A stretch of DNA of 32,000 bases from Thermoproteota archaeon (GCA_032249315.1 JAVVGB010000003.1:19099-51098); one strand, 5' to 3'; shown: positions 288 through 4,306, counted from the first letter of the stretch. Notes: generated by a model from the sequence alone, not told the origin. A program made the numbers and translations.

Positions 288-372
288 GCCGGGATTGCCT
301 AGCCTGGTAAGGCGCAGGCCTGGAGAGCCTGTGGGGATTTTCCCCGCGTGGGTTCAAATCCCACTCCCGGCG
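288..372 (+). tRNA. tRNA-Ser(GGA), class II with a long variable arm; 85 nt, no intron, CCA not encoded
   Basis: Manual cloverleaf: acceptor GCCGGGA/UCCCGGC, D arm GCCU-AGCCUGGUA-AGGC, anticodon arm CAGGC-CUGGAGA-GCCUG, variable arm UGGGGAUUUUCCCCGC, T arm GUGGG-UUCAAAU-CCCAC, discriminator G. Confidence 0.9.
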
Positions 373-1333
373 TTTTCTATAATTCTTAATACTTTATCTA
401 CTTTTGCAACTATACCAGATTTTGACTTTACAATTTCCTCAGAATTTAGCTCAGATTTAGCTATAGCAATTATTTCGTTATATACTGTATTAATAGTAAC
501 TATAGATTTAGCTTTAACATCAGAAGTTACAGCTATAACTGCAGGAGAAGCTACAAAGGATCCATGGGTAATCGAAAATAAAGAAGAATCTTTAACATAA
601 ATTTTAGGTAAAAAGAATAACAATTCTTCCAAAGGTCTTACAAATTCATTTAAATAAGTAGGATTATTATAGTTTTTCCATTCTCTATAAGCACCAAAAA
701 GTTCATGCAAGGTTATTACTCTTTTATCATTTTCATTTAAGGTTCCTATTCCTATTCTTCTTAAATCTTTCATATGAGCTCCACAACCTAATATTTCACC
801 TATATCATGACATAATTTTCTAACATATGTTCCTGCTTGACATTTAATTTTTAATAATACATCTCTATCTTTAAAATCAAGAATTTCTATGTTGTAAATT
901 TTCCTTCTCCTAGGCTTTTTGCTAACAGCAGATCTTAAAGGTGGTTTTTGATAAATCTCTCCTATAAACATTTTAATAACTTTTTCAAGTTCATTTTTAT
1001 CTACATTTTCATGCAATTGCATTTCGCAAATATATTCTTTATCCATTTTAGCTAATAAATCAGCTACTTTTCTAGCTTTTCCAAAAAGTATTATTAATAA
1101 ACCCGAAACAGCGGGATTTCTCCTTAATAATCTAGAGTCCCGCTGTGGGCTACAGGAAATTGAAATTCATCTCTTATCCATGCAGCTATTTGATGACTTG
1201 TAGGTCCTTTAGGTTTGTCAATAATTGAATAACCTAATTGTAATTTTTCTTCGATACTTTTTTTTACCAAAGGTACTGGAGAAAGTATAATTTTATGTTT
1301 TGTAGTCTCTTTATATAAGATCTTTCTTTGCAT
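354..1333 (-). CDS. cbf5: Pseudouridine synthase Cbf5 (TruB family, H/ACA RNP catalytic subunit). It is encoded as two ORFs (1124..1333 and 354..1046) that become one reading frame of about 321 aa after removal of a 14-nt BHB intron (1118..1131)
   Basis: The upstream ORF ends ...KPKGPTSHQIAAWIRDEFQFPVAHSGTLDY*. The downstream frame reads PAVSGLLIILFGKARKVADLLAK before its first Met. Deleting 1118-1131 gives HSGTLD-PAVSG, the conserved TruB motif-II context (GTLDP). A C-terminal PUA-like region is present. The gene sits in the conserved position after L14e. Confidence 0.85.
1118..1131 (-). other. Putative 14-nt bulge-helix-bulge (archaeal endonuclease-type) intron in the cbf5 pre-mRNA
   Basis: The mRNA reads CAGCGGGA-CUCU-AG|A-UUAUUAA-GGAG-AA|A-UCCCGCUG. 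There is an 8-bp outer helix (1138-1145 with 1109-1116) and a 4-bp central helix CUCU/GGAG. It is flanked by two 3-nt bulges on opposite strands. Cleavage after the 2nd nucleotide of each bulge removes exactly 14 nt and restores the frame. Confidence 0.65.
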
Positions 1334-1610
1334 CTATAACAACACCTTCCCTAAAGAAAGAGATTAGATTTTCTTTCTCTATACTTTGTAATACTTCAGA
1401 ATCTGAAGCATTTTTGCTTATTTTTAATACATGTGGCAAAAATATTAAATGGTCAATATTTACTTTTCTCCTTCTTACTCCTGTTAAGCTTTTTGGTCCT
1501 GTCACAACAACATAATTTTTATCTATAATGTTAACTATTACGCATTTTCTTCCAGCATCCCTTCCTCTTATTTTAACACAAACCCTTCCTAATGTTACCA
1601 ATGGTGGCAT
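1311..1610 (-). CDS. rpl14e: 50S ribosomal protein eL14
   Basis: 99-aa ORF with the KOW-like motif GRVCVKIRGRDAGRKCVIV. It lies in the conserved position between cmk and cbf5. Confidence 0.9.
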   Translation of the reverse strand: MPPLVTLGRVCVKIRGRDAGRKCVIVNIIDKNYVVVTGPKSLTGVRRRKVNIDHLIFLPHVLKISKNASDSEVLQSIEKENLISFFREGVVIDAKKDLI

Positions 1611-2888: not shown

Positions 2889-4306
2889 TCTCCCTTCAAA
2901 AATCTTGCAAGTGATGGGAATTCTTCTTCAATTTTTTGCTGCAACAAAATTCTGTAATATTGATATATAATACCAACAGATAATAAAATACCTATTCCTG
3001 TTCCAATTATTCCCAAAGCGTCAGAAACTGATGCAAGAAGTCCTATAATTAAACCGCTAAACCAAGTTAATGTAGGTATATATCTGTTAAGAAGTTGCTT
3101 TAAAACAATTTCACTATGTCTAAATCCTTTTACTTGTATACCTGATTTGATCATTCTTTTAGCTTGTTCTTCAGCACTCATCCCAGATGTTTCTACCCAT
3201 GCTTTTGCAAAAAGAACACAAAGACCTGAAAAAATTAAAATATATATTATTGCATGAAGCGGATCATGCATCACATTATATATGTTTCTTGGCGGAGATA
3301 AATAATAAATTAAGCCACCAGTAGGCACTGCTTGATTTCCTACAACATTAAATTGAGCTATCATGTTTAAAAGAGGATCAGTATTAGATCTGTTATAATT
3401 ATTCCAAGTCATTTGAGAAAAGAAAAGTAAGTTAGCAGTTAAAGCTCCAGCTAATATTACAGGAACGTTTGAAACATATATTAACTGTAATGGTATTTTA
3501 GCTTTTAACCCTCCATATTTAGGATAAGCTACAGGAATTTCTATTTTTACTCCTTGAAGATAAACTATTAAAAATAAAACTATAATCATAGCTATTAAAC
3601 CTATAAGTGAAGAAGATCTTGCAATGTTAGGATTGCCAAATATTAAGTTACTAACAACATCGCCTCCAGCAGCAACATGAACCAAACGGGGAAAGAATCC
3701 AACATAGCTCCCGTTAATAATTACAGGGCTAAATAATTCAGTGAAAATTTGTGAAGCTACACCTGCTAATATGAATAGACTTACTGCACTACCAAAACCC
3801 CAGCCTTTTTGTAATATCTCATCAAATAAAATTATTAATATACCTACAGCAAACAACTGAATAACAACCAAAACTGCTGCAGACATACTTTGAACTCTTA
3901 ATAATCCACCTGCTATGAAAACAATTGCTTCCAATAAAGTAAATAATATTGCAAGTAATTTTTGAGTTCCAGTAAATAAAGCTCTTTGCTTTTTATCGGT
4001 AAGATCCAAATTAATTATCTTTGAACCTACCAGCAATTGCATTATTAAACCTGCAGTAACAATTGGTCCTACACCGAGTTGCGCTAAAGTACCAAATTTA
4101 GCAGCAAAAATTATCGAAAATAAAGGCGAAAATGCTTCTTGTTGTTCCTTTGCAATAGGATATAAAGGTATTTGTGTAAAAGCTAAATAAATTGTTAAAA
4201 CAATAACAGTCCAAACCAACTTTTCTCTAAAACCTACTATTCTTTTTGCTTTGGGTACTTCAGGTAATATAGATAATATAGGTCTTAAGGATTCAAGAAC
4301 TGTCAT
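2885..4306 (-). CDS. secY: Preprotein translocase subunit SecY
   Basis: 473-aa polytopic membrane ORF directly after uL15, the universal spc-operon position. Confidence 0.95.
   Translation of the reverse strand: MTVLESLRPILSILPEVPKAKRIVGFREKLVWTVIVLTIYLAFTQIPLYPIAKEQQEAFSPLFSIIFAAKFGTLAQLGVGPIVTAGLIMQLLVGSKIINLDLTDKKQRALFTGTQKLLAILFTLLEAIVFIAGGLLRVQSMSAAVLVVIQLFAVGILIILFDEILQKGWGFGSAVSLFILAGVASQIFTELFSPVIINGSYVGFFPRLVHVAAGGDVVSNLIFGNPNIARSSSLIGLIAMIIVLFLIVYLQGVKIEIPVAYPKYGGLKAKIPLQLIYVSNVPVILAGALTANLLFFSQMTWNNYNRSNTDPLLNMIAQFNVVGNQAVPTGGLIYYLSPPRNIYNVMHDPLHAIIYILIFSGLCVLFAKAWVETSGMSAEEQAKRMIKSGIQVKGFRHSEIVLKQLLNRYIPTLTWFSGLIIGLLASVSDALGIIGTGIGILLSVGIIYQYYRILLQQKIEEEFPSLARFLKGE

Follow-up and report, generated by a model that had tools for sequence, protein, structure and literature searches.

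An intron in the pre-mRNA of cbf5 was described early in Crenarchaeota (Watanabe et al. 2002; Yoshinari et al. 2006), and in the Sulfolobales and most of the Desulfurococcales it measures 16-44 bp, folds mostly as a relaxed bulge-helix-bulge (BHB) motif and interrupts the catalytic aspartate's codon (Yokobori et al. 2009, PMC2738675, and work cited there). The tRNA-splicing endonuclease EndA cuts this intron between the second and third bulge residues, and cDNA evidence is available for several species (PMC2738675). The intron was inferred in 2009 to have arisen in the ancestor shared by the Sulfolobales and Desulfurococcales, and all Thermoproteales members sampled at that time were without it (PMC2738675); a review of 2023 regarded it as restricted to a small group of related archaea. 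In this report we describe a 14-nt insert in the cbf5 gene of a Thermoproteota archaeon (GCA_032249315.1), found in a stretch of 32,000 nt (JAVVGB010000003.1:19099-51098) which is called the window throughout and whose positions serve as coordinates. The comparisons presented below make it very probable that the insert is an archaeal BHB-type intron of the cbf5 pre-mRNA, homologous to the known crenarchaeal one.

The cbf5 gene lies on the minus strand of the window and its reading is interrupted right after HSGTLD. The upstream open reading frame (ORF; 1333..1124, minus strand) starts with the ATG at 1333 and gives 69 aa with the C-terminus HSGTLDY followed by a stop codon, and the downstream one (1046..354, minus strand; 230 aa when counted from its first ATG) holds the remainder of a TruB-family protein in another frame. 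A preliminary description, made from the sequence of the window, had spoken of two cbf5 ORFs in different frames with a stop between them, and the ORF list agrees with it. In silico removal of positions 1118-1131 produces a single ORF of 321 aa that reads ...HSGTLD/PAVSG..., in which exon 1 extends over 1132..1333 (minus strand) from the ATG at 1333 to the G of the Asp codon (...CAC AGC GGG ACU CUA G) and exon 2 over 354..1117 (minus strand) from AU CCC GCU GUU to the stop codon at 356..354. Exon 1 matches the N-terminus of the NCBIfam Cbf5 models, and no in-frame start codon could be read from the sequence upstream of the ATG at 1046 in exon 2.

The spliced 321-aa protein passes the cut-offs of two NCBIfam Cbf5 equivalogs (NF003280, 349 bits with a cut-off of 242; TIGR00425, 304 bits with a cut-off of 238), scores under the cut-off of the NCBIfam TruB equivalog model, and carries the Pfam domains TruB_N, TruB_C_2 and PUA. 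Its alignment with P. furiosus Cbf5 (3hjw; E = 1e-72) is ungapped at the junction, where GTLDPAVSG of the window stands on GTLDPKVSG of the chain, and this places the break inside the conserved HSGTLD/PAVSG motif, as had been noticed at the outset. On these matches the host gene is assigned as cbf5, coding for the archaeal H/ACA pseudouridine synthase. By the same alignment the insert, with the cut after the G of GAU, falls in the codon of the Asp of the GTLD motif, which is the catalytic residue of the TruB/Cbf5 family; the preliminary description had put it on this very codon.

From 1146 down to 1108 the minus strand reads A CAGCGGGA CUCU AGA UUAUUAA GGAG AAA UCCCGCUG U, and its quotation as mRNA for 1145..1109 had been correct. 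When a 45-nt segment was folded with ViennaRNA, the outer helix came out at 9 bp and the central helix at 4 bp, with AAA as a 3-nt bulge; the energy was -18.3 kcal/mol (z = -4.55; 0 of 200 shuffles equally stable), and the fold was retained within a 121-nt context. When 21,304 overlapping 45-nt segments of both strands were scanned (mean -3.6, standard deviation 2.7 kcal/mol), the cbf5 fold was outranked by three tRNA genes alone and ranks first in stability among the non-tRNA structures of the 32 kb. Neither ARAGORN nor Rfam found a tRNA at the cbf5 motif itself.

The outer helix connects the exons: its 5' strand, ACAGCGGGA (1138..1146, minus strand), belongs to exon 1 and pairs with UCCCGCUGU of exon 2 (1108..1116, minus strand) in both the minimum free energy (MFE) and the centroid structure. 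The perfect pairing ascribed to it earlier holds, but the length of 8 bp given then does not, as A1146-U1108 pairs as well and the helix has 9 bp. In the central helix exon CUCU (1134..1137, minus strand) pairs with intron GGAG (1120..1123, minus strand), as seen from both pairing and alignment; it had been recognized as a 4-bp helix, although the U-G wobble among its pairs was omitted. Unpaired between these strands are AGA at the 5' splice site (1131..1133, minus strand; cut between G1132 and A1131), a loop of 7 nt, UUAUUAA (1124..1130, minus strand), and AAA at the 3' splice site (1117..1119, minus strand; cut between A1118 and A1117). Every relative with a 14-nt insert has AGA as its 5' stretch, whereas those with 13 nt have AGG, the 3' bulge is AAA or AGA in relatives, and the 4-bp helix between the two 3-nt stretches keeps its length in all of them; the first and last bases of the loop always pair, and the remainder of it is unconserved. 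At the level of sequence and predicted fold, the anatomy of the element can be regarded as shown.

The intron, AUUAUUAAGGAGAA, occupies 1118..1131 on the minus strand. When splicing was simulated with each 3-nt bulge cut canonically, behind its second nucleotide, exactly these 14 nt were removed, and the ligated CUA GAU CCC GCU restored the 321-aa Cbf5, both as the preliminary description had predicted; the same junction is present in four public contigs. Because intron and exon 2 both start with AU, removing 1117-1130 or 1116-1129 leads to a product identical to that obtained with 1118-1131. The genome alone places the cut only to within 2 nt, and it is the BHB rule that selects G1132/A1131 and A1118/A1117.

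The BHB geometry was also tried as a significance test in its own right and was replaced by the energy rank: with G-U pairs allowed, the window contains 52 matches when the outer helix is required to have 6 bp or more, and 8 when it must have 8 bp or more. Bare BHB geometry is common by chance in DNA of 30% G+C, so the significance of the cbf5 motif rests on stability, position and conservation. One further BHB-like pattern, reaching from the L14e stop to the cbf5 start (1306-1359, minus strand; outer helix of 8 bp, inner part of 24 nt, rich in A-U and G-U pairs), was unconserved in four related loci (L005-L008) and was taken as a chance match.

A protein search returned as closest homologues mostly C-terminal fragments of 220-250 aa, and since these start at or after VSGLL, they bear the signature of the same interruption. 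All six of the closest full loci (L003-L008; Cbf5 59-96% identical) have a 14-nt insert at the same nucleotide, and a pattern scan of the Joint Genome Institute (JGI) metagenomes yielded 11 further cbf5 contigs with a 13- or 14-nt insert and none without it. Ten distinct motif sequences with a 13-14-nt insert were obtained from a single-cell genome (L004), metagenome-assembled genomes (MAGs) and metagenomes, with Cbf5 identity down to 59%. The 13-nt versions (L088:9894-9929, L090:3607-3642, L096:5505-5540 and L097:903-938) have AGG as 5' bulge and a loop of 6 nt that reads GGUAAC or CAUUUG; the contig of L088 has 48% G+C and its Cbf5, of 336 aa, is more divergent. A match with an 18-nt gap in DNA of 63% G+C (L087) was rejected, as it is not cbf5 and fits the search pattern by chance.

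Pairing and covariation were assessed on an alignment of eight 14-nt versions, in which 112 of 112 pair cells are paired; as a control, the 3' partners were shifted by 1-3 columns, and pairing fell to 37-53%. The central-helix pair U1136-A1121 is U-A in four sequences, C-G in three (L006, L008, L092) and U-G in one (L003), and the pair closing the loop is U-A in four, A-U in two and G-C in two, with C-G additionally in L090. The outer helix never varies among the eight aligned relatives and for this reason was tested by synonymous sites, using ten spliced cbf5 genes and the 73 columns with an invariant amino acid, Met and Trp excluded. All ten sequences share a single codon at 8 of the 73 columns, and seven of these eight lie within the nine motif codons, His-Ser-Gly-Thr-Leu-Asp-Pro-Ala-Val (7/9 fixed in the motif versus 1/64 elsewhere; Fisher p = 1.7e-7). 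Third positions vary at just two motif codons, that for Thr, where the change is compensated in the intron, and that for Val, just outside the helix. The G+C-rich codons AGC GGG and CCC GCU of the outer helix, in a genome of 30% G+C, are thus held by RNA structure. Comparison of these genes demonstrates conservation with covariation, and the codon counts demonstrate selection acting on RNA structure at synonymous sites.

Two of these results weigh against an intron of the BHB type. The invariance of the 9-bp outer helix deprives it of covariation support, and its support comes from the synonymous-site test. In addition, of the two 3-nt bulges proposed in the preliminary description AAA is recovered in both the MFE and the centroid structure, but AGA is not, the energy model putting the 5' splice site in a hairpin loop of 9-10 nt and not in a clearly delimited bulge of 3 nt. 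Likewise, the minimal inner hairpin UU-AUU-AA failed to appear, as ViennaRNA finds at most one pair there in the MFE structure and none in the centroid, and relatives keep the outermost loop pair only. Of the two flanking helices the outer one is thus perfect over 9 bp, while the inner one is not predicted and is represented by one closing pair conserved with covariation. An intermediate between BHB and bulge-helix-loop describes the motif best, the model placing it nearer to the latter than to a strict helix-bulge-helix-bulge-helix (hBHBh') form. Because the 5' site is modelled in a hairpin loop, cleavage may need an endonuclease of relaxed specificity. Relaxed motifs are substrates of the crenarchaeal heterotetrameric splicing endonuclease.

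For comparison with the known cbf5 introns, reference loci of Sulfolobales and Fervidicoccus were retrieved with a 200-aa exon-2 protein query; a 117-aa S. solfataricus fragment, taken from an alignment read by optical character recognition, returned short partial Cbf5 proteins only and no Sulfolobus locus. The reference introns are 23 nt long in S. islandicus, 31 nt in S. tokodaii, 19 nt in M. sedula and 29 nt in Fervidicoccus, and the lengths for M. sedula and S. tokodaii equal those of the published table exactly. In all four loci the gene, the Asp codon and the nucleotide are the same as in the window, with the cut after the first base of GAY in the context CUAG/A (CUGG/A in S. islandicus). 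Alignment to known cbf5 introns had been suggested at the start, together with the statement that such introns occur in Crenarchaeota, and both the literature (Watanabe et al. 2002; Yokobori et al. 2009) and the Sulfolobales loci compared by us are in agreement with this statement, the insertion nucleotide being identical.

The resemblance extends to the structure. The four reference loci have the common core A-CYCU-RGA-(hairpin)-GGGG-NNA, and the core A-CYCU-AGA...GGRG-NAA-U, partly forced by the Thr-Leu-Asp codons, is common to the window, M. sedula, S. tokodaii, Fervidicoccus and the inserts of two other MAGs (L047, L076; see below). Core similarity exceeding the demands of pairing is what PMC2738675 had put forward in favour of a common origin. 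The topology is shared, as the 3' bulge adjoins the exon-exon helix and exon CYCU pairs with intron GGRG, and so are the proposed enzymes. Side by side, M. sedula reads GGGA CCCU AGA GCCCUAAUGGGC GGGG CAA UCCC and the window GGGA CUCU AGA UUAUUAA GGAG AAA UCCC. The differences concern size, which is 14 nt here (13 nt in L088, L090, L096 and L097) against the published 16-44 bp, so that the insert is indeed very small, as had been remarked; the inner helix, which has 3-11 bp in known introns and is a single covarying pair here; the outer helix, which is perfect, G+C-rich and 9 bp long and is maintained through the choice of synonymous codons, the reference loci having about 3-4 bp; and the host, which belongs to candidate division YNPFFA / NAG1 'Geoarchaeota', outside the Sulfolobales and Desulfurococcales. 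From this comparison the window intron is best read as the known cbf5 intron with its inner hairpin deleted and its outer helix lengthened from about 4 to 9 bp.

Archaeal tRNA introns offer a second comparison. The geometry is that found at position 37/38, in which a 3-nt unpaired stretch on either strand, with 4 bp between the two, is cut after its second nucleotide, and 14 nt falls within the size range of tRNA introns, 11-175 nt (PMC2738675). With relaxed, bulge-helix-loop tRNA-intron motifs, whose cleavage by the crenarchaeal heterotetrameric enzyme is described in PMC3241643, the cbf5 motif shares the position of the 5' site in a loop. It differs from tRNA introns in lying in a protein-coding transcript that has no tRNA body, where both coding and pairing constrain the exon strands. 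Apart from the cbf5 intron, the archaeal mRNA intron reported as a splicing-endonuclease substrate is a BHB intron in the 5' untranslated region (UTR) of HVO_1309 in Haloferax volcanii (Schwarz et al. 2020, PMC7714728). It is a like case as regards the kind of substrate, but it is euryarchaeal, lies in a 5' UTR, interrupts no codon and has no sequence or positional relation to cbf5.

Splicing itself we infer from this comparative evidence together with a set of contigs in which the insert is missing. Two full-length 321-aa proteins, P0001, with 97% identity to the spliced product, and P0131, are encoded by four contigs in which precisely the 14 nt of the insert are missing and the sequence runs CUCUAG/AUCCCG. 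Two of these contigs, JGI Ga0450875 (L001) and Logan SRR35977028 (L002), are 98-99% identical to the insert-bearing locus L003 and come from what we call population B, to which L085, L086 and L095 with the insert also belong. The other two, JGI Ga0450860 (L083) and Logan SRR35977026 (L084), are 98.4-98.6% identical to the window and belong to population A, which comprises the window and L103-L106 with the insert. The two populations are about 91% identical to each other, and Ga0450847, of the same JGI series, contains insert-bearing contigs of both. Irrespective of whether they represent cDNA or DNA, the four contigs confirm the junction to the nucleotide.

Most likely these contigs are assembled cDNA of spliced mRNA, because they occur in both populations, only in two sample/run pairs, and the exon-1 ORF stands on 75 contigs. 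For these four contigs, and for them only, it is less likely, though by no means negligible, that they are genomic DNA and represent intron-less alleles that arose by recent exact loss in populations otherwise keeping the intron. Loss of the cbf5 intron by lineage is documented in the Desulfurococcales, two JGI and two Logan assemblies concur on the insert-free junction, and L001 is a contig of 17 kb running through intergenic regions and an antisense tRNA gene, which is more DNA-like than transcript-like. Genomic loss, however, would have had to take place exactly and independently in both populations. It would also have to be confined to Ga0450860 with SRR35977026 and Ga0450875 with SRR35977028, although Ga0450847 retains the insert in both populations and the JGI metagenome collection gives 0 insert-free junctions as compared to 11 insert-bearing ones. 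As weak evidence in the same direction, all four insert-free contigs are stored in sense orientation.

As a further test of cDNA origin we sought intron-bearing tRNA genes, and ARAGORN, with introns allowed, found none in the window or in the clade loci. The ends of the contigs were also considered as evidence of RNA origin and were set aside, because a DNA assembly graph could be broken at these very places by tRNA segments that isoacceptor genes have in common. Thus L084 stops exactly at the tRNA 5' end (window position 288, tRNA-Ser). In L083 the terminal 83 nt (3527-3609, Ga0450860_01299) repeat its own positions 2283-2365, with window position 322 joined to 1579, so that the base antisense to the first anticodon position of tRNA-Ser is connected to a site lying 31 nt within the L14e gene. 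This junction is not found in L084, which is of the same population, and it is probably an assembly chimera.

The proposed course of cbf5 expression is as follows. In the transcript exon 1 (ACAGCGGGA) and exon 2 (UCCCGCUGU) would form the G+C-rich helix of 9 bp and exon CUCU would pair with intron GGAG, so that each scissile phosphate would come to lie in an unpaired stretch of 3 nt, the two stretches being on opposite strands with 4 bp between them. An endonuclease, presumably EndA, would cut after the second nucleotide of each stretch (AG/A and AA/A), and a ligase, presumably of the RtcB type, would join the exons to CUA GAU CCC, with the Asp codon, the frame and the 321-aa Cbf5 restored. 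The unspliced mRNA codes only for the truncated 69-aa peptide, and production of Cbf5 would therefore depend on splicing.

That the gene is expressed without splicing, by a ribosomal frameshift, by a bypass like that of T4 gene 60 or as two polypeptides that assemble, is highly improbable, even if there is some likeness to recoding signals in the stable hairpin and, in the window, in the stop that directly follows the Asp codon. A bypass would find no matching landing codon downstream, as there is no second GAU or CUA before CCC GCU; any frameshift would add 4-5 residues to the invariant GTLD-PxVSG catalytic loop; and a separate second polypeptide would have no in-frame start in exon 2 before Met92. 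Moreover, the stop codon is not present in L005-L008, where the out-of-frame residues are unrelated (EIFGE, EDFGE, DNTGE, EIDGE), the conserved structure is exactly the endonuclease motif, and there are contigs that lack just the 14 nt. An indel from assembly or sequencing, or a decaying cbf5 pseudogene, which a frame-shifting 14-nt insertion with a stop (TLDY and stop) and two products in the public annotation might suggest, is for practical purposes excluded by recurrence with covariation, since the same insert is met in many independent assemblies (single-cell genome L004, MAGs L003 and L005-L008, 11 JGI contigs, Logan contigs), the exon-1 ORF stands by itself on 75 contigs, the loop sequence varies with pairing maintained, and the rest of cbf5 is conserved at the protein level with no other lesion.

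The nearest named relative of the host is Crenarchaeota archaeon SCGC AAA471-B05, with 86% Cbf5 identity, which NCBI places in candidate division YNPFFA, Thermoproteota incertae sedis. Single-cell genomes from Great Boiling Spring tagged YNPFFA (JGI) represent the NAG1 ('Geoarchaeota') population and have 28.6-31% G+C (Becraft et al. 2017), a range with which the 30% G+C of the window agrees; NAG1 has been assigned to a deep branch in, or close to, the Thermoproteales. Inserts at the same cbf5 nucleotide were also seen in two other MAGs, one of 21 nt in a 'Candidatus Nezhaarchaeales' MAG (L076:3118-3180) and one of 33 nt in a 'Candidatus Bathyarchaeota' MAG (SKYB62; L047:3187-3260), both with the full hBHBh' fold, and the cbf5 intron therefore occurs outside the Sulfolobales, the Desulfurococcales and the YNPFFA lineage. 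Among the papers searched, none was found to report a cbf5 intron outside the Sulfolobales and Desulfurococcales.

In the window cbf5 stands in the archaeal arrangement SecY - L34e - cytidylate kinase - L14e - cbf5 - tRNA-Ser - S13. Its last 19 nt (354-372, stop codon 356..354 included) overlap the 3' end of the convergent tRNA-Ser(GGA) gene (288-372, plus strand), and the C-terminal residues AGSGI of Cbf5 are the antisense of the T-arm and acceptor stem of this tRNA; they are found again in distant relatives (P0002, P0004, P0009, P0012), presumably due to tRNA conservation. Genes of the window are nearly all on the minus strand and the GC skew is negative throughout. Judging from ORF order and length, with a Pfam check on the SecY-to-S13 part only, the window seems to contain RNA polymerase, EF-1alpha and a large S10-spc ribosomal protein cluster. 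It has three tRNA genes (Ser, His, Lys), and no further Rfam family was detected in it.

NCBI and JGI annotation of 354-1333 and of its relatives (P0121-P0134) gives a 69-aa 'hypothetical protein' or 'TruB' (75 contigs) and a 'Cbf5' of 230, 268 or 270 aa, so that public records split the gene just as the preliminary description had expected of a naive annotation. None of the 15 cluster members listed has a name that indicates a spliced gene, and both full-length 321-aa members come from the insert-free contigs. An essential RNA-modification enzyme in this way appears broken across a whole lineage, and the junction rule CUAG/A.../AY would correct annotation in several groups of Thermoproteota.

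The kind of element is already known, and the findings leave the known principle unchanged; what they add is incremental. It consists of a cbf5 intron smaller than any known before (14 nt, with 13 nt in relatives), an architecture that is reduced and close to bulge-helix-loop, with a compensating long exon helix, a host lineage of uncultured hot-spring archaea that widens the known distribution, and, probably, natural evidence of exact splicing. With 13-14 nt, the inner helix gone and an outer G+C-rich helix of 9 bp, these introns would be natural minimal substrates and may be informative on what the endonuclease needs outside tRNA. The inference of 2009 on the origin of the intron and the remark in the 2023 review need to be revisited, as the same site is occupied in YNPFFA/NAG1, in a Nezhaarchaeales MAG and in a 'Bathyarchaeota' MAG. 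We put forward only tentatively, and as the less probable view, that the cbf5 intron is an ancient element fixed to a single nucleotide of the catalytic Asp codon across much of the Thermoproteota (YNPFFA/NAG1, Nezhaarchaeales, a 'Bathyarchaeota' MAG and the two known orders), pared in NAG1 to the minimum for the endonuclease, and that it has a function, for example in coupling Cbf5 synthesis to tRNA-splicing activity, rather than being a neutral relic. If this is true, its persistence and the synonymous-site selection for spliceability would imply that the intron is of use to the cell.

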